Sequence record: MN850639.1 | DNA: 64,000 bases | Source of the DNA: Escherichia phage radambza | Strand: one strand, 5' to 3' | In this document: positions 14,875 to 20,517 of the stretch, piece by piece | How the letters are laid out: the number at the start of each line of letters is the position of its first letter | Position numbering within the stretch: the first letter of the stretch is position 1 | Made by a program: the position numbers and the translations under genes | The notes under the pieces: generated by a model | What the model saw: the letters and a program-made list of their open reading frames with translations, nothing else | What the model was told of the DNA's origin: nothing | Databases searched by the model: none

Positions 14875-14899
14875 TAAAAAAGACGGCACAGAGACCGTC
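14875..14899 (-). terminator. rho-independent terminator (minus strand)
   Basis: Plus AAAAAA then GACGG-cacagaga-CCGTC; on minus strand hairpin then TTTTTT. Confidence 0.5.
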
Positions 14900-14965: not shown

Positions 14966-15024
14966 AAAAAGCCCTGTCTAAAAATACTCTTCGGTAGCGA
15001 AAGGAAGAATACTTATAGCAGGGC
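14966..15024 (-). terminator. long imperfect hairpin with T-run (minus strand), downstream of tRNA cluster
   Basis: GCCCTG ... CAGGGC with internal pairing; minus-strand TTTTTT after the stem. Confidence 0.4.
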
Positions 15025-15064
15025 ATTATTATTATTATTTTAATTGAGAGAGAGTAAAATAACT

Positions 15065-15140
15065 TGGAGAATCCGAAGGGACTCGAACCCTTATAAACCT
15101 GTTTTGCAGACAGGCACATAGCCATTTCTGTCACGGATTC
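15065..15140 (-). tRNA. tRNA-Cys (anticodon GCA)
   Basis: Manual cloverleaf: 7-bp acceptor GAATCCG/CGGATTC, T-arm with TTCGAGT loop, anticodon loop cTGCAaa, encoded CCA. Confidence 0.7.
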
Positions 15141-15144
15141 AAAT

Positions 15145-15237
15145 TGGAGGAAGATACCAGACTTGAACTGGTACACCGATTTCTCAGCTACTGGCAGTTT
15201 AGCAAACTGCTCCCTTACCTTTTAGGGTTAATCTTCC
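15145..15237 (-). tRNA. tRNA-Ser (anticodon GCT), type II
   Basis: Perfect acceptor GGAAGAT/ATCTTCC, anticodon stem GCAGT/ACTGC loop ttGCTaa, long variable arm, encoded CCA. Confidence 0.7.
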
Positions 15238-15238
15238 A

Positions 15239-15973
15239 TTATTTCTGTAATGCGCTCTTCATTTCTGGTGTTGCAATAGTGTCAATTACACCAGTTTTAC
15301 AGGCATCATCAAACCAGTCTGGTAAGATACCTGCTAAGAACCCATTGATATTCGTTTTAAGGTACTCTGCAATAAGGGCAGCTTCTTCTTCAATCATCTG
15401 CACAACTTCATCTGCATAAGCTGTAATCTTTGAGATACCTTCATTAATCTTACTAACAGCTTGGTTAGCTAAATCAGAAATAGTATCAAGACCTTTGTCA
15501 ATAGCGTCTTGTAAATCACTTAATACATCATTAACACCGTCTAGTGCACTGTTAATCGTATCAATAGCTTTTTGACCATACTCTGTAGCAACACCCATAA
15601 TACCACTAAATGGTGTACAGCCAACTTGTTCACCTGCTGCACTCATAACATTAGAATAACCTTTTGCTACCTGCATACGTGATGAAAACTCATCAATGGA
15701 CTTTTGACCGTAATCTGTCAGTGTTTTGGTGGTTGATGTAGTGCTTGTTAGACTCGTGGTAAAGCTGTTAAGCAGAACTGTTGTAAGTCCAGCAGCAACA
15801 AGCTTATCCTTTACTGTAGGGTCTGATACAGAGCTAATAGAGCTTACAAGTGATGTAGAGGCAGCTACGGTTCCACCGAGAACTGCTGCACCAGTAATAA
15901 GGGGGTTAGAAAACCCTTTACCAGTTTTTAAGAGATTAAAAATCTCCTTACCTTGTTCTGTCATCTCTTTCAT
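15239..15973 (-). CDS. hypothetical protein embedded in tRNA cluster
   Basis: ORF-track GTG start at 16036 overlaps tRNA-Phe; trimmed to ATG at 15971-15973 (MKEMTEQGKEIF...), about 244 aa. Confidence 0.5.
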   Translation of the reverse strand: MKEMTEQGKEIFNLLKTGKGFSNPLITGAAVLGGTVAASTSLVSSISSVSDPTVKDKLVAAGLTTVLLNSFTTSLTSTTSTTKTLTDYGQKSIDEFSSRMQVAKGYSNVMSAAGEQVGCTPFSGIMGVATEYGQKAIDTINSALDGVNDVLSDLQDAIDKGLDTISDLANQAVSKINEGISKITAYADEVVQMIEEEAALIAEYLKTNINGFLAGILPDWFDDACKTGVIDTIATPEMKSALQK

Positions 15974-15989
15974 TAAGCACCTTTGAAAT

Positions 15990-16066
15990 TGGTAGTCCAG
16001 TGGGATTTGAACCCTCTTCTCATGTTTTTCAGACACGCGCTTTAACCATATAAGCTACTTGGACTA
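15990..16066 (-). tRNA. tRNA-Phe (anticodon GAA)
   Basis: Acceptor TAGTCCA/TGGACTA, anticodon stem CGTGT/ACATG loop ctGAAaa, T-loop TTCAAAT; 3' end register ambiguous by one nt. Confidence 0.6.
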
Positions 16067-16071
16067 TAAAT

Positions 16072-16147
16072 TGGGGTGACCTACGGGATTTGAACCCGTA
16101 TAGACCATGTTCACAGCATGGGTCATTACCATTTATGATAAGGCCAC
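16072..16147 (-). tRNA. tRNA-His (anticodon GTG)
   Basis: Acceptor GTGGCCT/AGGTCAC, anticodon stem CCATG/CATGG loop ctGTGaa, perfect T-arm, encoded CCA. Confidence 0.7.
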
Positions 16148-16178
16148 ATTTAAGGACTCTCGTAAGAATCCTTAGAAG

Positions 16179-16254
16179 TGGCAGCGGCATAAGGATTTGA
16201 ACCTTAATAAGACAGCTTCAGAGACTGCTGCATTGCCAGTTATGCTATACCACT
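16179..16254 (-). tRNA. tRNA-Gln (anticodon CTG)
   Basis: 76 nt; acceptor with two G-U pairs; anticodon loop ctCTGaa; T-arm TAAGG/TTCAAAT/CCTTA; encoded CCA. Confidence 0.6.
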
Positions 16255-16259
16255 AAATT

Positions 16260-16338
16260 TGGTACTCCATATCGGATTCGAACCGATACATAACACAGAT
16301 TTTAAGTCTGGCCTCTCTGCCAATTGGAGTAATGGAGC
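16260..16338 (-). tRNA. tRNA with Leu-type anticodon TAA, short variable arm, 5' end ambiguous (16330 or 16338)
   Basis: Perfect T-arm ATCGG/TTCGAAT/CCGAT, discriminator A, encoded CCA; anticodon stem only 4 bp (CAGA/TCTG), loop cTTAAaa. Confidence 0.45.
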
Positions 16339-16340
16339 AT

Positions 16341-16416
16341 TGGCGGGGGATGTTGGAATTGAACCAACTTCTTCGATTTCAAAGACCGAGGTTTTAACCT
16401 TGTAAACTAATCCCCT
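16341..16416 (-). tRNA. tRNA-Gln (anticodon TTG), 1:72 mismatch
   Basis: T-arm GTTGG/TTCAATT/CCAAC, anticodon stem TCGGT/ATCGA loop ctTTGaa, encoded CCA; first acceptor pair A-C. Confidence 0.5.
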
Positions 16417-16424
16417 TTAAATCT

Positions 16425-16982
16425 TTACTTTCTCAGTGGATGAATAAAGAATGCCAACATAACTCTTTCCCTTGAGAATGCTCTTTCTTCTGGGACAACA
16501 CTTTTTAGTTTCCATCCAATATAAATTCTCCAGTAAAATTGTTTACCAAAGATTTTAATTGATGGGATAAAAGCGAATAATCCCCAAGCATTCCTGTTCC
16601 ACATTAGGAGATAACCAGTCTGATTATCTTCAGGGTTAGAACTTACGTTGATATTACCTTTCCACTTAGTAACATCTTTTACATCTCTTCCTAACACATG
16701 GTAAGAGAAGTTATAAGCTTTGTTTCTCCAGAGCCATCCAACTCTTTGCATGTAGACACCTAGTTTACCAATCCATCTAATATTAGCCCATCTTTTAACG
16801 TGACCTTCATCACCATCAATTGGGTTGTCATATGTCTCCATCCATCTGAATCCGAAAGGTAAGTGTCCTTTCTTCTCACTGTAGAATGGAACTACAAAAG
16901 GTGCTAAGATAACTGCTAAGATTGCTGCAAATGGCTCTAACAAAGCTAAGAAAATCCATGAAGCATACTTTAAGTATCTCAT
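16425..16982 (-). CDS. membrane protein (N-terminal transmembrane segment, Trp-rich), function unknown
   Basis: 185 aa, ATG start; hydrophobic N-terminus IFLALLEPFAAILAVILAPFVVPF; embedded between tRNA genes. Confidence 0.55.
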   Translation of the reverse strand: MRYLKYASWIFLALLEPFAAILAVILAPFVVPFYSEKKGHLPFGFRWMETYDNPIDGDEGHVKRWANIRWIGKLGVYMQRVGWLWRNKAYNFSYHVLGRDVKDVTKWKGNINVSSNPEDNQTGYLLMWNRNAWGLFAFIPSIKIFGKQFYWRIYIGWKLKSVVPEERAFSRERVMLAFFIHPLRK

Positions 16983-17001
16983 CTAAATAGCCTCTTAAAA
17001 T

Positions 17002-17079
17002 TGGTGTTCCAAGACGGATTCGAACCGTCACTAATACAAGGTTTGAGCTTGCATCCTCTGCCAATTGGGATACTGGAAC
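17002..17079 (-). tRNA. tRNA with Leu-type anticodon CAA, short variable arm
   Basis: Acceptor GTTCCAG/TTGGAAC, T-arm GACGG/TTCGAAT/CCGTC, anticodon stem GCAAG/CTTGT loop ctCAAac, discriminator A, encoded CCA. Confidence 0.5.
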
Positions 17080-17080
17080 A

Positions 17081-17155
17081 TGGTACTCACTAAAGGACTT
17101 GAACCTTTTTCTTCATCTTGTAAGGGTGATGTTTTACCATATAAACTAAGCGAGT
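17081..17155 (-). tRNA. tRNA-Val (anticodon TAC)
   Basis: Acceptor ACTCGCT/AGTGAGT, D-stem GTTT/AAAC, anticodon loop ctTACaa, encoded CCA. Confidence 0.6.
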
Positions 17156-17159
17156 GTGA

Positions 17160-17250
17160 AAGAGGTCTGAAGTTGTGCCGCTAACTCAACTCCGTGGAAT
17201 TTGTTACGGTCTTCAGTTGACTCAAAGCGGTCTTTCACTTGACCTCTGAA
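17160..17250 (-). ncRNA. structured non-tRNA element (candidate small RNA or processing structure), strand uncertain
   Basis: Terminal inverted repeat AGAGGTC ... GACCTCT enclosing nested stems (AGTTG/CAACT, CCGT/ACGG, GACCGC/GCGGC-like); no T-loop or anticodon arm. Confidence 0.3.
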
Positions 17251-17251
17251 T

Positions 17252-17327
17252 TGGTGCTCCCACAAGGATTCGAACCCTGATAAGTTGCTTACAAGGCAAC
17301 CGTAATAGCCAATTATACGATAGGAGC
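17252..17327 (-). tRNA. tRNA-Thr (anticodon TGT)
   Basis: Acceptor GCTCCTA/TGGGAGC, perfect anticodon stem GTTGC/GCAAC loop ctTGTaa, encoded CCA. Confidence 0.7.
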
Positions 17328-17334
17328 ATTAATT

Positions 17335-17409
17335 TGGAGCATCCAGAGGGAATCGAACCCTCAACCTCAGTTTGGAAGACTGTAATTTTCCCGTTTAAAC
17401 TATGGATGC
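17335..17409 (-). tRNA. tRNA-Gly (anticodon TCC)
   Basis: Perfect acceptor GCATCCA/TGGATGC, T-arm GAGGG/TTCGATT/CCCTC, anticodon loop ctTCCaa, encoded CCA. Confidence 0.65.
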
Positions 17410-17415
17410 ACTAAT

Positions 17416-17491
17416 TGGTGGAGAAGCAGGGAATTGAACCCTGTACTTAAGTTTGCAAAACTTATGTTTTAACCATGTAAACTACATCCCC
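17416..17491 (-). tRNA. tRNA-Ala (anticodon TGC)
   Basis: Perfect anticodon stem TAAGT/ACTTA loop ttTGCaa, T-arm CAGGG/TTCAATT/CCCTG, encoded CCA; one acceptor mismatch. Confidence 0.7.
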
Positions 17492-17497
17492 AATGTT

Positions 17498-17573
17498 TGG
17501 TACAGGTGGAGGGAATTGAACCCATCGTCTTACTGATTAAGAGTCAGCCGCATAACCATTTTGCTACACCTGC
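17498..17573 (-). tRNA. tRNA-Lys (anticodon CTT)
   Basis: Acceptor GCAGGTG/CACCTGT, anticodon stem GCTGA/TCAGT loop ctCTTaa, encoded CCA; paralogous to the tRNA at 18731-18806. Confidence 0.6.
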
Positions 17574-17580
17574 ATTAATT

Positions 17581-17657
17581 TGGTACACCTAGAGAGATTC
17601 GAACTCACACTGAGCAGATTCTAAGTCTGCTGCCTCTACCAGTTGGGCTATAGGTGC
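17581..17657 (-). tRNA. tRNA with Leu-type anticodon TAG, short variable arm
   Basis: Perfect anticodon stem GCAGA/TCTGC loop ctTAGaa, acceptor GCACCTA/TAGGTGT, discriminator A, encoded CCA; 77 nt. Confidence 0.55.
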
Positions 17658-17915
17658 ATTAAATCTTTTTAGAGAACTTCTAAGAACCTGAGCAACAAGG
17701 TTCCACAACAAGCGACTAATAACCTTAGAAGCCCTCTAAAAAGACCTAAATAGGTCTTTGCATAGTCTTGTTTAATCCGGTGACTAGAACCTTTGGAGAG
17801 CTTGATATTATCTCTTCTCCGTGACACCTACTAGGTGTTTTATCAGTGTGTACGACAATACACGAGGGATACCAAAGCAACATCCGAATGAAGCTTGGCT
17901 TTAAATCTTATTAGG

Positions 17916-18003
17916 CGGTAAGTAAAGGAGTCGAACCCTCACCGTATCTCTACAGTGGCAACTGTTTTCAAGACAGTTTGGCTACCATTAGCCGCTACCT
18001 ACC
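17916..18003 (-). tRNA. tRNA-Ser (anticodon TGA), type II, CCA not encoded
   Basis: Acceptor GGTAGGT/ACTTACC, perfect anticodon stem ACTGT/ACAGT loop ctTGAaa, long variable arm. Confidence 0.65.
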
Positions 18004-18016
18004 CCTAATAAGACTT

Positions 18017-18099
18017 TGGCATGGGACGGAGGAGTTGAACCCCTTTGAAACGGTTTTGGAGGCCGTTGCTCATGCCTTAGAGTCTTAACATCGTCCCAT
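18017..18099 (-). tRNA. tRNA-Trp-like (anticodon CCA) with enlarged D region
   Basis: Perfect acceptor ATGGGAC/GTCCCAT with encoded CCA, T-loop TTCAACT, anticodon loop ctCCAaa; 26 nt between acceptor and anticodon stem instead of about 19. Confidence 0.45.
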
Positions 18100-18242
18100 A
18101 CTATAATTCGAAGCTTACCGTATTATCTCAACACTGTAAAGCCCCTTCTCAGATTATTTACATGTTCTGGAAAACATGAGATACAGACCACCTCCTTACA
18201 CGGAGACCCGATAAGGTCGTCTAAGCAATCTGCTAACTAAAT

Positions 18243-18324
18243 TGGTCGAGGCGGCAGGACTCGAACCCGCATACTCCACTTACTCGGTTAACGGCGGTTT
18301 AGAAGACCGCTGAGATACGCCCCG
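18243..18324 (-). tRNA. tRNA-like element, atypical (anticodon-like loop TCT; no recognisable D arm; 23-nt variable region)
   Basis: Acceptor CGGGGCG/CGCCTCG, T-arm GCGGG/TTCGAGT/CCTGC, encoded CCA, perfect stem GCGGT/ACCGC with loop ctTCTaa, but only 7 nt between acceptor and that stem. Confidence 0.35.
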
Positions 18325-18572
18325 TAATTATCTTTAAAGACTCTCTTAGAAAGCCCTTAAAGATGCCCACTTTATTAATCATACCGTGGGCGAGTACGCC
18401 AAATTCTTTGATGAGGGATTGGAAGACCTCACTGGTGTTTAGCCTATCAAGCTACTGCCAGAAAAACATTGTCGTTTGCATTTATTTTAAATTTGCAAAA
18501 TAGACGCTACGCAACGAAAACTAAGGTTACTATAAAGTAGTCACATCTCAATGTCAACAACTTTATTGAAAG

Positions 18573-18647
18573 TGGTTGTAGGTGAGGGTATCGAACCCTC
18601 TTCTAACGGTTATCAGCCGTTTGCATTACCATTTATGCTAACCCACA
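18573..18647 (-). tRNA. tRNA-Ile (anticodon GAT)
   Basis: Perfect anticodon stem AACGG/CCGTT loop ctGATaa, T-arm GAGGG/TTCGATA/CCCTC, encoded CCA. Confidence 0.7.
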
Positions 18648-18649
18648 AT

Positions 18650-18726
18650 TGGAGGTTCAGGTGGGAATTGAACCCACATTCATAGGGCTTATGAAACCCT
18701 TGCATTACCTTATCTGCGACTGAACC
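18650..18726 (-). tRNA. tRNA-Met (anticodon CAT)
   Basis: Perfect acceptor GGTTCAG/CTGAACC, anticodon stem AGGGT/GCCCT (three G-C pairs) loop ttCATaa, T-arm GTGGG/TTCAATT/CCCAC, encoded CCA. Confidence 0.65.
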
Positions 18727-18730
18727 ATAT

Positions 18731-18806
18731 TGGTAGAAGTGGAGGGATTCGAACCCATCGCCTGTCAGATTAAAAGTCTGCCGCATCACCATTCTGCTAC
18801 ACTTCC
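18731..18806 (-). tRNA. tRNA-Lys (anticodon TTT)
   Basis: Acceptor GGAAGTG/CACTTCT, anticodon loop ctTTTaa, encoded CCA; paralog of 17498-17573. Confidence 0.6.
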
Positions 18807-18810
18807 ATTA

Positions 18811-18954
18811 AATTATCTTTGTAGATAAGCTACCCAGACTTGCTTAAGGTCTGTAGCGATGTGCCTTTTTGGGTTTAAATCTAGAATTTACCCTTTCACC
18901 CTTTGTGGTCGCATACTCACAGGTAAGCTTAATAACTTATCTACAAAGATAATT
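18811..18954. repeat. perfect 19-bp inverted repeat pair (18811-18829 and 18936-18954) flanking a 106-bp spacer
   Basis: AATTATCTTTGTAGATAAG and its exact reverse complement CTTATCTACAAAGATAATT; internal hairpin CAGAC-ttgcttaag-GTCTG. Confidence 0.6.
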
Positions 18955-19005
18955 ACCAGACCGTTGTTTATCATCTTAAGTGCTACCATTACACCAACTC
19001 GACAT

Positions 19006-19031
19006 CTGCCGAGTGAAGGAATCGAACCTTC
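19006..19031 (-). pseudogene. tRNA 3'-half-like fragment (T-arm plus acceptor 3' strand, no 5' partner)
   Basis: Perfect T-arm GAAGG/TTCGATT/CCTTC but no complementary acceptor 5' strand or anticodon arm within 100 nt. Confidence 0.3.
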
Positions 19032-19234
19032 GCCTTTTCTTTACCGAGAAATAGATTGTTTAAGTTTTGCTGTAAACGGTCTTCTGTAAATTTGTTGAGC
19101 CAGACCAAGTTTTAGATTTTCAAAATTAAATTGGCTTGAAATTTCATACGTTCTTGCTGTATTTGGTCTTCTGCTCCTTTAAAGAATACTCGTAAGAACT
19201 CTTTAAGGGAGGGGCTAAATAGCCCTCTCAAAAT

Positions 19235-19310
19235 TGGCGAGGTATGCGAGAATCGAACTCGCGGCTCAGGAGAGACAATCCCGTATTTTACCCATCTAAA
19301 CTAATACCCC
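19235..19310 (-). tRNA. tRNA-Asp (anticodon GTC)
   Basis: Acceptor GGGGTAT/ATACCTC, T-arm GCGAG/TTCGATT/CTCGC, anticodon loop ttGTCtc, discriminator G, encoded CCA. Confidence 0.7.
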
Positions 19311-19314
19311 AAAT

Positions 19315-19743
19315 TCATGTACCATTTCTTAGATACTTCTTCCTACGTCTTTCTGGACTATAGTTTCTTCTACTCTCAGCATTCTTAGCCAGCCTACACT
19401 CATCGCATCTACAGCCTTTAAAATAGCTATACGCAGTTCCGTGTTTAATTGTTTTATGTTTTCTTTCACTTATCTGTGCTGGTCTTGCTGCTTTCATGTT
19501 ACATTTAAGATGACTATAAGAAATATTATCTAGTGAAAAGAAAAGCTCTTTTGCATTCTCACTATGTCTCCACGGAATCTTATGCTCGATAGAGAAATCA
19601 TCCCTAGTCATTTCTTTTCCGCACTGAAAACATCTATTTTGATTTGTCTTACATATAAAATCGAATAGCAAATCTTTTACTAGTCTGTTTTGTGCAGTTC
19701 CCAAACTCATACCAAGTTGTGATTTGTATACTTCATCTCTCAT
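19315..19743 (-). CDS. HNH homing endonuclease
   Basis: CFQCGKEMTRDDFSIEHKIPWRHSEN...SHLKCN HNH motif; ORF-track start at 19836 overlaps tRNA-Tyr, trimmed to ATG at 19741-19743. Confidence 0.75.
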   Translation of the reverse strand: MRDEVYKSQLGMSLGTAQNRLVKDLLFDFICKTNQNRCFQCGKEMTRDDFSIEHKIPWRHSENAKELFFSLDNISYSHLKCNMKAARPAQISERKHKTIKHGTAYSYFKGCRCDECRLAKNAESRRNYSPERRRKKYLRNGT

Positions 19744-19765
19744 AACTAAGTATCTCGCTAAGTGT

Positions 19766-19853
19766 TGGTGTGCCGTGTAGGAGTCGAACCTACCGAGTCT
19801 CAATGACAAGGGATTTACAGTCCCCACCGCTACCATCTACGGGATAACGACAC
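19766..19853 (-). tRNA. tRNA-Tyr (anticodon GTA), type II
   Basis: Acceptor GTGTCGT/ACGGCAC, anticodon stem GGGGA/TCCCT loop ctGTAaa, long variable arm, T-arm GTAGG/TTCGACT/CCTAC, encoded CCA. Confidence 0.7.
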
Positions 19854-19864
19854 ATTTAATTTTG

Positions 19865-19938
19865 CGGTTAGTCAGGGATTCGAACCCTGTGCCATTCGCT
19901 TAACAGGCGACCGCACATACCTTATGTGCTTCCTAACC
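19865..19938 (-). tRNA. tRNA-Asn (anticodon GTT), CCA not encoded
   Basis: D-stem GCAC/GTGC, anticodon loop ctGTTaa, T-arm CAGGG/TTCGAAT/CCCTG. Confidence 0.6.
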
Positions 19939-20022
19939 ATATTTAGTATTACCAGACCGTATCTTTCAATTTTTTCCGCTAAAAATTTAATAAATGTTGC
20001 TGTAAACGGTCTTCTGTAAATT

Positions 20023-20099
20023 TGGAGGCGGGTGCAGGAGTCGAACCTGCCGATACCATGCTAATGAGACATGTGAGACGCCCTTTCTCTATACCCGCA
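20023..20099 (-). tRNA. tRNA with CAT anticodon (Met, initiator or Ile-lysidine type), unpaired 1:72
   Basis: Anticodon stem CATGT/GCATG loop ctCATta, T-arm GCAGG/TTCGACT/CCTGC, encoded CCA; first acceptor position U opposite C. Confidence 0.6.
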
Positions 20100-20190
20100 A
20101 TTCTTAATGACCAGACCAAATCTCTTCTTTGTCCGATTTACCTTCAGATGAATAAGATTAAGTTTGCTGTAATTGGTCTTCTGTCAAAAC

Positions 20191-20268
20191 TGGCGTTCCA
20201 GAAGGGATTTGAACCCTCAAATATCCACTTTGAAAGAGTGGTGACTATACCATTTTGTCTACTGGAAC
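20191..20268 (-). tRNA. tRNA-Glu (anticodon TTC)
   Basis: Perfect acceptor GTTCCAG/CTGGAAC, perfect anticodon stem CCACT/AGTGG loop ctTTCaa, encoded CCA. Confidence 0.7.
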
Positions 20269-20275
20269 ATTAATT

Positions 20276-20352
20276 TGGTCTCTGTTGGAGGACTTGAACC
20301 TCCGGCCTTACCGCCCCAAACGGAACGCTCTACCAAGCTGAGCTAAACAGAG
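20276..20352 (-). tRNA. tRNA-Pro (anticodon TGG)
   Basis: Perfect acceptor CTCTGTT/AACAGAG, D-stem GCTC/GAGC, anticodon loop ttTGGgg, T-arm GGAGG/TTCAAGT/CCTCC, encoded CCA. Confidence 0.65.
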
Positions 20353-20378
20353 ATAAACTTTTCAAACTCTATGTAACC

Positions 20379-20409
20379 ACTTTAACATTATTTTTTAGTG
20401 ATTGTCAAG
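20379..20409 (-). promoter_or_regulatory. candidate sigma70-type promoter for the tRNA cluster (minus strand)
   Basis: Minus-strand TTGACA, 17-19 nt spacer, then TAAAGT/TTAAAG, about 30 nt upstream of the first tRNA. Confidence 0.3.
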
Positions 20410-20517
20410 AACTTTTTTAAAATATTTTTCAGTATCTTAGAAAAGCTCTCGTTTCGTTTCTATGTAGAACATATTAAAGGGTATCAAACACATTGTCAAT
20501 ACCCTTTTTGAAACTTT

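Follow-up and report, generated by a model that had tools for sequence, protein, structure and literature searches.

In the 64,000-nucleotide (nt) stretch of Escherichia phage radambza analyzed here (sequence record MN850639.1; this whole stretch is referred to as the window), three transfer RNAs (tRNAs) with leucine anticodons are encoded that do not have the long variable arm of bacterial tRNA-Leu. Judged by their sequences, these elements are probably functional phage tRNA-Leu isoacceptors that belong to a widespread armless family and that the host's leucyl-tRNA synthetase (LeuRS) would charge. The three genes, each identified by ARAGORN, Rfam and a cloverleaf parse, are the following:

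16260..16338, minus strand: tRNA-Leu(UAA), 79 nt, variable loop GUUAUGU (7 nt), A73, encoded CCA, Rfam 47.5 bits
17002..17079, minus strand: tRNA-Leu(CAA), 78 nt, variable loop AUUAGU (6 nt), A73, encoded CCA, Rfam 44.0 bits
17581..17657, minus strand: tRNA-Leu(UAG), 77 nt, variable loop UCAGU (5 nt), A73, encoded CCA, Rfam 57.3 bits

All three had been pointed out in an earlier note on this DNA, and the positions given there match the ARAGORN coordinates exactly, with Rfam in agreement (the gathering score of its tRNA model is 29). The anticodons TAA, CAA and TAG named in the note were returned by both programs independently, as the Rfam alignment puts UAA, CAA and UAG in the anticodon loops just like ARAGORN does, and the parse reproduced the discriminator A in all three tRNAs, the length of 77-79 nt and the variable regions of 5-7 nt. 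A long variable arm, i.e. a type II architecture with more than 10 nt in this region, is absent from all three tRNAs, and nowhere in the window does a long-arm tRNA carry a Leu anticodon, in agreement with what the note had stated. The only long-arm tRNAs in the array that contains the three genes, which are also the only type II tRNAs in the window, are tRNA-Ser(GCU) with 93 nt, tRNA-Ser(UGA) with 90 nt and tRNA-Tyr(GUA) with 88 nt. The note had left room for another anticodon or for an overlooked long arm; both are ruled out by the two programs and by aligning the sequences with tRNA-Leu of E. coli. When the entire array was scanned permissively with Rfam, nothing further emerged on the three Leu genes.

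While the description of the three elements as type I in length holds, the body is not that of an ordinary type I tRNA. The D region has 17 nt with the layout NNN-C13-A14-A15-Y16-U17-G18-G19-Y20-A20a-G21-A22-NNN; it reads CUC-C-AAUUGGCAGA-GAG in tRNA-Leu(UAA), UCC-C-AAUUGGCAGA-GGA in tRNA-Leu(CAA) and GCC-C-AACUGGUAGA-GGC in tRNA-Leu(UAG). In the parse, the D stem consists of three base pairs plus a non-Watson-Crick 13:22, and this 13:22 mismatch is also flagged by Rfam. The nucleotides of the tRNA core are all in place, namely U8:A14, A15:U48, G18G19, A20a and the T-loop residues U54, U55, C56 and A58, which would form the predicted tertiary pairs. The T loop is UUCGAAU in all three tRNAs, and the variable region ends with GU (U48), as in E. 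coli. The anticodon loops are CUUAAAA in tRNA-Leu(UAA), CUCAAAC with C38 in tRNA-Leu(CAA), and CUUAGAA with A37 in tRNA-Leu(UAG). Because the D arm has the type II/Leu layout with its three-base-pair stem and the non-Watson-Crick 13:22, the three elements are, as far as nucleotide positions can tell, bacterial tRNA-Leu bodies without the arm and not generic type I tRNAs. The idea that ordinary type I tRNAs simply acquired Leu anticodons was considered and rejected, in view of this Leu/type II D-arm layout, which is tied to Leu anticodons wherever it was found.

For comparison with the host, the E. coli K-12 genes leuZ, leuW, leuX and leuQPV were fetched and parsed in the same way as the phage genes. 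These isoacceptors share with the phage tRNAs the anticodons UAA, UAG and CAA, the 17-nt D-region layout and the residues A14, A15, G18G19, A20a, U48 and A73, and the G1.U72 pair that is a flaw in the acceptor stem of phage tRNA-Leu(UAG) occurs in leuZ, too. In contrast, the host genes are 85-87 nt long and contain a variable stem-loop of 13-15 nt, where the phage genes have only 5-7 nt, the identity to the phage genes is just 51-54 of 77-79 positions, and position 13 is A or G in the host but C in the phage.

The shared residues match the published leucine identity set of E. coli LeuRS. This set comprises A73, A15:U48, G18G19, A20a and the contacts between D and T loop, whereas the anticodon and the long arm are not crucial for E. 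coli LeuRS, and constructs without the arm are still active (PMC9976931). The long arm is thus typical of tRNA-Leu, yet it is no identity element for this synthetase, which differs from seryl-tRNA synthetase (SerRS), for which the size of the arm is the main identity element (PMC9976931). According to the account of Larkin et al. (2002) that is given in PMC9976931, engineered minimal derivatives of E. coli tRNA-Leu from which the variable arm and the anticodon arm had been removed are charged by E. coli LeuRS if A73 and the tertiary contacts between D and T loop are intact. These RNAs are armless like the phage tRNAs, but they are artificial constructs and not natural phage genes.

The three genes are strongly conserved among related phages. 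Shigella phage Sf14, a Mooglevirus of the same subfamily, has a tRNA array of the same gene order, and its Leu genes are identical to those of the window at 78/78 positions (CAA), 76/77 positions (UAG) and 78/79 positions (UAA). Annotated relatives have three tRNA-Leu per genome, and phage wV8 and other Felixounavirus records contain tRNA-Leu(UAG) with 100% identity, under the annotation tRNA-Leu. The armless state is found across genera of the Ounavirinae (Felixounavirus, Mooglevirus Sf14, Kolesnikvirus SunLIRen, and Arno18), and tRNA-Ser and tRNA-Tyr retain their arms in the same arrays. Parsing gave variable loops of 5-6 nt also in Mycobacterium phage Koguma (three genes), Streptomyces phage Peebs (two), Klebsiella phage KaOmega (two), Pectobacterium phage Arno18 (two) and Erwinia phage SunLIRen (three), and U48 is present in the three window tRNAs as well as in all parsed enterobacterial phage tRNA-Leu, except for one KaOmega gene whose parse is ambiguous. 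Over 68 nt, tRNA-Leu(UAG) is still about 81% identical to tRNA-Leu of Mycobacterium and Streptomyces phages. Phages T4 and T5, which are virulent coliphages that likewise encode tRNA-Leu in a tRNA cluster, differ in that they kept the arm (87 nt in T4; 85 nt with a 13-nt variable region in T5 tRNA-Leu(UAG)).

Could these tRNAs carry Leu anticodons but be charged with another amino acid, in a missense recoding as known from Ser-inserting allo-tRNAs? Bacterial tRNAs with a Leu anticodon and Ser identity do exist (PMC5389517), the naming by ARAGORN rests on the anticodon alone, and the Leu_TAG of Sf14 has an Ile2 isotype score of 65.7 that comes close to its Leu score of 67.4 (PMC12482277). Nevertheless, the Leu model ranked first for each of the three Sf14 orthologues in tRNAscan-SE 2.0, with scores of 67.4, 49.1 and 60.2 (PMC12482277). 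In the window tRNAs, the identity elements for serine or alanine are absent: there is neither a long arm nor G73, as the discriminator is A73, and the 3:70 pairs are U-A, U-A and A-U instead of the G3:U70 of tRNA-Ala. None of the three has the CAU anticodon of Ile2 or Met, and the D loop is Leu-specific in all of them. By the established identity rules, the other E. coli synthetases mostly depend on anticodon bases that are absent from these three tRNAs. A charging with another amino acid would therefore be very surprising, and we regard it as the least probable of the explanations considered here.

The cloverleaf of armless phage tRNA-Leu is kept by selection. This was examined with an alignment of 110 distinct armless phage tRNA-Leu, in which pairs were counted for a cloverleaf with a three-base-pair D stem. 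In these 110 sequences, 97.2% of the stem cells contain standard pairs, as compared to 58.7% in shuffles (0/500 reach the observed value) and 36-46% when partners were slid, and changes on both sides occur in 19 of the 20 pairs. Compensatory changes were found in 824 cells, while the shuffles gave 209 +/- 15. The parser had mis-registered about 16 tRNAs for which ARAGORN set the start one base too early, and these were left out of this alignment; it is due to such early starts that minorities with "U73" and "UCGAAUC" appear in the parsed set. Pseudogenes were considered as well, and they are argued against by the conservation between genera and by the compensatory changes.

The earlier note had implied that the armless form is rare, and this does not hold: armless tRNA-Leu is common in phages and Actinomycetota and is not peculiar to this genome, and a type I tRNA-Leu is known from Streptomyces coelicolor (PMC6614811). 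A blastn search with the 77-nt tRNA-Leu(UAG) gene matched 273 phage records, in 241 of which the match spans 80% or more of the gene and has no gap where an arm would be, and wherever a feature is annotated under a match, it is a tRNA-Leu. The hosts include Mycobacterium (76 records), Streptomyces (46), Escherichia (40), Salmonella (27), Pseudomonas (13), Shigella (12) and Enterococcus (11), and further matches come from phages of Gordonia, Cronobacter, Klebsiella and Prochlorococcus and from a crAss-like phage. IMG/VR was then scanned for the D-arm motif CCAAYTGGYAGAGR, followed by GTTCGAATC at a distance of 26-56 nt, a pattern that includes D-arm positions but leaves out the anticodon, A73, U48 and the loop length. 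This motif pair occurs in at least 120 viral contigs, and nearly all of the listed matches span 51 nt, which corresponds to a 5-nt variable loop. On the listed viral loci, ARAGORN assigned Leu anticodons to 139/139 motif tRNAs, all of which are 74-79 nt long, and six anticodons are represented (tag 46, caa 42, taa 33, gag 8, cag 6, aag 4). The tRNA-Ser of the same loci are almost all 83-95 nt long, and the tRNA-Tyr 79-94 nt. In 59 unique armless Leu tRNAs of these loci that do not carry the motif, the layout and A73 recur.

The same motif pair was used to scan cellular genomes, with one genome per prokaryotic species, and matches were obtained in at least 120 contigs. Most of the listed ones belong to Actinomycetota (Mycobacterium, Nocardia, Amycolatopsis, Pseudonocardia, Corynebacterium, Streptomyces), and some to Planctomycetota or other groups. 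Here, 120/122 listed motif tRNAs have Leu anticodons, and 121/122 are 73-78 nt long, the remaining one 84 nt. At 87/120 listed cellular loci there is just one tRNA, so that these genes resemble ordinary chromosomal ones. Seven cellular loci (L135, L137, L186, L215, L224, L226 and L245) contain 17-34 tRNA genes within 8 kilobases (kb); such loci, from Actinomycetota, Myxococcota and other groups, could represent tRNA arrays or clusters of a prophage-like kind. As a control, viral contigs were drawn by an unrelated type I D-arm motif, and in this sample 14/50 tRNA-Leu (28%) are at most 80 nt long and 36 are longer, with lengths that are continuous from 73 to 92 nt. One of the control loci (L269) has a tRNA-Leu(UAG) with an intermediate variable region of 9 nt. 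In the same control loci (L255-L372), 4/14 tRNA-Tyr calls are just 73-76 nt long, and short-arm or armless tRNA-Tyr may thus exist in some viral contigs, too. Taken together, the anticodons, the E. coli leucine identity nucleotides, the isotype scores of Sf14 and the tie between motif and anticodon support the proposal of the earlier note that these are the Leu isoacceptors of the phage.

How would these tRNAs function? The genes would be transcribed within the minus-strand tRNA array, and the transcript would be processed to mature tRNAs with their encoded CCA. The LeuRS of the Escherichia or Salmonella host would then charge the armless tRNAs with leucine, as it would read A73 and the core of D loop, T loop and Levitt pair, but neither the anticodon nor the arm. 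A loss of the arm would be possible in tRNA-Leu but not in tRNA-Ser or tRNA-Tyr, because SerRS and bacterial tyrosyl-tRNA synthetase (TyrRS) need the long arm, whereas LeuRS does not. Once charged, tRNA-Leu(UAA) would decode UUA and UUG, tRNA-Leu(CAA) would decode UUG, and tRNA-Leu(UAG) would decode CUA and CUG, and perhaps CUU. Such a use in translation would suit a phage with 39% G+C (38.9% in the window) that is richer in these codons than its CUG-biased host. The earlier note had suggested a comparison of codon usage, and this was done for the long non-overlapping open reading frames (ORFs) of the window and for a 50-kb stretch of E. coli K-12. The shares among leucine codons are:

TTA: window 25.4%, E. 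coli sample 10.3%
TTG: window 13.4%, E. coli sample 10.6%
CTA: window 11.7%, E. coli sample 4.4%
CTT: window 27.4%, E. coli sample 9.3%
CTG: window 15.8%, E. coli sample 56.9%

The shares of UUA, CUA and UUG in the window ORFs are thus above those of the E. coli sample, and the codons covered by the three anticodons are mostly those that the phage over-uses. For Sf14, a shift of TTA and CTA in the same direction has been described (PMC12482277).

A close natural parallel is the type I tRNA-Leu(CAA) of S. coelicolor, which has a 5-nt variable loop, A73, U8:A14 and G18G19 like the phage tRNAs and which accepts leucine (PMC6614811). Five nucleotides are the minimum loop for charging in that system (PMC6614811), and the loops of the window tRNAs, with 5-7 nt, are not shorter than this. 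The armless tRNA-Leu of many Actinomycetota also have the same D-arm motif, CCAAYUGGYAGAGR. There are, however, clear differences. The S. coelicolor tRNA is encoded by a chromosomal gene, and the leucine-specific domain of its LeuRS is adapted to the type I tRNA (PMC6614811). It is the one armless tRNA-Leu among five, whereas all Leu tRNAs of the window phage are armless, and an enterobacterial host LeuRS, unlike that of S. coelicolor, has no native armless substrate. Animal mitochondrial tRNA-Leu, such as human mt-tRNA-Leu(UUR), are likewise type I tRNAs with A73 and A14 as identity elements (PMC9976931), but they are loosely folded and have a mitochondrial LeuRS of their own, and a comparison revealed no specific similarity in sequence to the window tRNAs.

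Several observations weigh against a charging of the phage tRNAs by the host enzyme, or against their being ordinary functional tRNAs. The most important one is that the LeuRS of E. coli (EcLeuRS) did not charge the transcript of the S. coelicolor type I tRNA-Leu(CAA), and that the authors describe EcLeuRS as charging type II tRNA-Leu only (PMC6614811). This assay is the sole direct test of a bacterial type I tRNA-Leu with EcLeuRS, and it was negative. The variable loop of that tRNA is A44 C45 A46 G47 C48 (PMC6614811), and due to C48 it is without the A15:U48 pair, which is used by E. coli LeuRS. As the window tRNAs have U48 at this position, the negative result does not transfer directly to them, but the failure of EcLeuRS on the S. 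coelicolor tRNA is the reason why we call the proposed charging probable and nothing stronger. In crystal structures, the C-terminal domain of LeuRS contacts the variable arm (PMC12360207), and the affinity for an armless tRNA-Leu may therefore be reduced; with the LeuRS of Aquifex, removal of the arm chiefly reduces affinity (PMC2377443). The stems are not flawless either. The note had described the anticodon stem of the third gene as perfect and the other two as less clean, and indeed there are five Watson-Crick pairs in tRNA-Leu(UAG), a G27.U43 in tRNA-Leu(CAA) and a C27.U43 mismatch in tRNA-Leu(UAA) according to the parse; in addition, tRNA-Leu(UAG) has a U50.U64 mismatch in the T stem. 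When folded as single sequences, two of the three, tRNA-Leu(CAA) included, adopt a cloverleaf as the minimum free energy (MFE) structure, but tRNA-Leu(UAA) does not, and the folding z-scores are weak (-1.6, -1.8 and -0.2). Single-sequence folding was counted neither way, and covariation was relied on instead. The conservation of the D arm in the viral and cellular motif sets is partly built in by the search motif. A last point is the A37 of tRNA-Leu(UAG), where E. coli leuW has G37, which is an m1G site.

In tRNA-Leu(CAA), C38 stands in the place of A38 of E. coli leuX, which breaks the A36-A37-A38 motif that is used for i6A37 and, according to PMC9976931, for methylation by TrmL. Due to the A37 in tRNA-Leu(UAG) and this C38, these two phage tRNAs are probably modified differently from the host tRNAs.

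From such points one could conclude that the RNAs are poor substrates or non-substrates of enterobacterial LeuRS, and that they serve as decoys for tRNA-binding host factors, act as regulatory or processing elements in the array, or are simply tolerated relics. The failure of EcLeuRS on the S. coelicolor tRNA, the mismatches in two of the three tRNAs and their weak folding as single sequences would agree with this, as would the host enzyme's lack of a native armless substrate: when complete E. coli genomes, 5,426 in number, were searched, no relative of the armless tRNA-Leu(UAG) gene came up. On the other hand, there is a near-perfect sequence conservation between genera, a full cloverleaf that is preserved by compensatory changes across the family, and a retention of A73, of the partners of the A15:U48 pair and of the encoded CCA. 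Moreover, the anticodons are strictly those of leucine among the matches listed (139/139 viral and 120/122 cellular), although a decoy needs none, and they fit the codons that are enriched in the phage. We therefore regard this alternative as improbable, and functional tRNA-Leu isoacceptors remain the preferred interpretation.

Why was the arm lost? Relaxed constraint is the plain explanation and agrees with the continuous range of lengths in phage tRNA-Leu. It is also conceivable, though in our view unlikely, that the arm loss is an adaptation which spares phage tRNA-Leu from those defence or toxin enzymes of the host that pick out class II tRNAs via the arm, so that leucine decoding goes on when the host tRNA-Leu is inactivated. 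Enzymes with such a preference are known: the toxin MenT3 requires the long variable loop of tRNA-Ser, and grafting of this loop onto tRNA-Ala turns the latter into a substrate (PMC11162799); the abortive-infection toxin AbiEii appears to prefer class II long-arm tRNAs (bioRxiv 10.64898/2026.01.19.700257); and VapC52 cuts a variable loop. Phage tRNAs evade anticodon nucleases via loop changes (PMC10264068), and armless tRNA-Leu is found repeatedly in phages whose hosts span many phyla, accounting for about 28% of the phage tRNA-Leu in the control sample. However, no toxin is known that inactivates tRNA-Leu via its arm in Escherichia or Salmonella, and the activity of MenT3 on tRNA-Leu is less than 5% of that on tRNA-Ser and has no effect in vivo (PMC11162799). 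Many Actinomycetota have armless tRNA-Leu as single chromosomal genes, for which an explanation by defence is not needed, T4 and T5 keep the arm, and the continuum of lengths from 73 to 92 nt is what relaxed constraint predicts.

The three genes are part of a densely packed minus-strand tRNA array with candidate signals at either end:

15065..20352, minus strand: tRNA array with 24 ARAGORN tRNAs and one aberrant tRNA-like element, a few ORFs in between
20379..20408, minus strand: promoter-like site (TTGACA, 18-nt spacer, TAAAGT, with TG) directly upstream of the first tRNA of the array, by consensus match
20471-20499: second promoter-like site, by consensus match
14882..14899, minus strand: terminator-like hairpin and T run downstream of the last tRNA (Cys), by consensus match

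Promoter-like sites are no more numerous in the region than expected from shuffling. Positions 15000-20400 show 96% identity to Salmonella phage BPS17W1, and they have matches in 371 phage records, most of which are Felixounavirus that infect Escherichia and Salmonella; the source of the window is a Felix O1-like phage.

Some further elements of the array deserve mention. The 96-nt spacer between tRNA-Thr and tRNA-Val (17156-17251, minus strand) folds into a single long hairpin with an MFE of -30 kcal/mol (z -3.7; 0/200 shuffles are as stable). The fold is also found in Sf14 (L254:14898-14992, z -3.3), and this unannotated structured RNA recalls the "stable RNAs" that are annotated in the tRNA region of T5. 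At 18246-18324 (minus strand) there is a tRNA-like element that scores 31.7 bits with Rfam and is not called by ARAGORN. Its acceptor stem has 7 base pairs, its T arm is good, and the loop of an anticodon-like hairpin reads CUUCUAA (UCU, Arg), but a D arm is absent and there is an extra region of 23 nt. The element occupies the place of the Sf14 tRNA-Arg(TCT), with which it has only 43 positions in common, and is probably a degenerate or aberrant tRNA-Arg. The tRNA-Ser(GCU) at 15145-15237 (minus strand) has U73 instead of the G73 that is usual in bacterial tRNA-Ser, and the same is true for Erwinia phage SunLIRen.

An ORF of 185 amino acids at 16425-16982 (minus strand), which matches DUF7338 (E 2e-61), lies between tRNA-Gln(UUG) and tRNA-Leu(CAA), at the place where Sf14 has tRNA-Arg(ACG). 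At the DNA level, it shares 67-73% identity with hypothetical genes of T4-like phages and may thus be a mobile insert in the array. Two further ORFs lie within the array at 15239-15973 and 19315-19836 (both minus strand). One of them, for which the Sf14 annotation is membrane protein, matches DUF7217 (E 6e-90); the other has a weak match to HNH endonucleases (E 3.5e-4, slightly under the Pfam cut-off) and, in its longest reading, extends over the 3' part of tRNA-Tyr.

For the annotation of the window itself, the result is routine: tRNA-Leu is already annotated in hundreds of related phage records, and type I tRNA-Leu are known from animal mitochondria and from S. coelicolor. A description of armless tRNA-Leu in phages was found nowhere in our literature searches, which led only to the paper on S. 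coelicolor (PMC6614811) and the coverage of which did not extend to most subscription journals. In textbooks and recent papers, the long arm counts as a defining trait of bacterial tRNA-Leu, and the synthetase of E. coli is regarded as type II-only. Yet a sizeable share of phage tRNA-Leu is armless while having every other leucine identity nucleotide, and among these are tRNAs of phages that infect E. coli, Salmonella, Klebsiella, Pseudomonas, Enterococcus, cyanobacteria and Actinobacteria. Should the less likely idea of an evasion be true, shedding the arm would be a counter-defence that tRNA-Leu alone can afford, because LeuRS ignores the arm while SerRS and TyrRS need it, and the resulting adaptor would be invisible to arm-recognizing host enzymes, i.e. 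to nucleotidyltransferases of the MenT/AbiEii type and to VapC toxins that cut the variable loop. In that case, horizontal transfer would have carried the armless family between phages whose hosts belong to unrelated phyla, and into actinobacterial chromosomes or out of them. The armless tRNA-Leu of phages are a natural test set, both for the question of whether enterobacterial LeuRS needs the arm in vivo and for the question of whether its absence protects from defence enzymes that recognize it.

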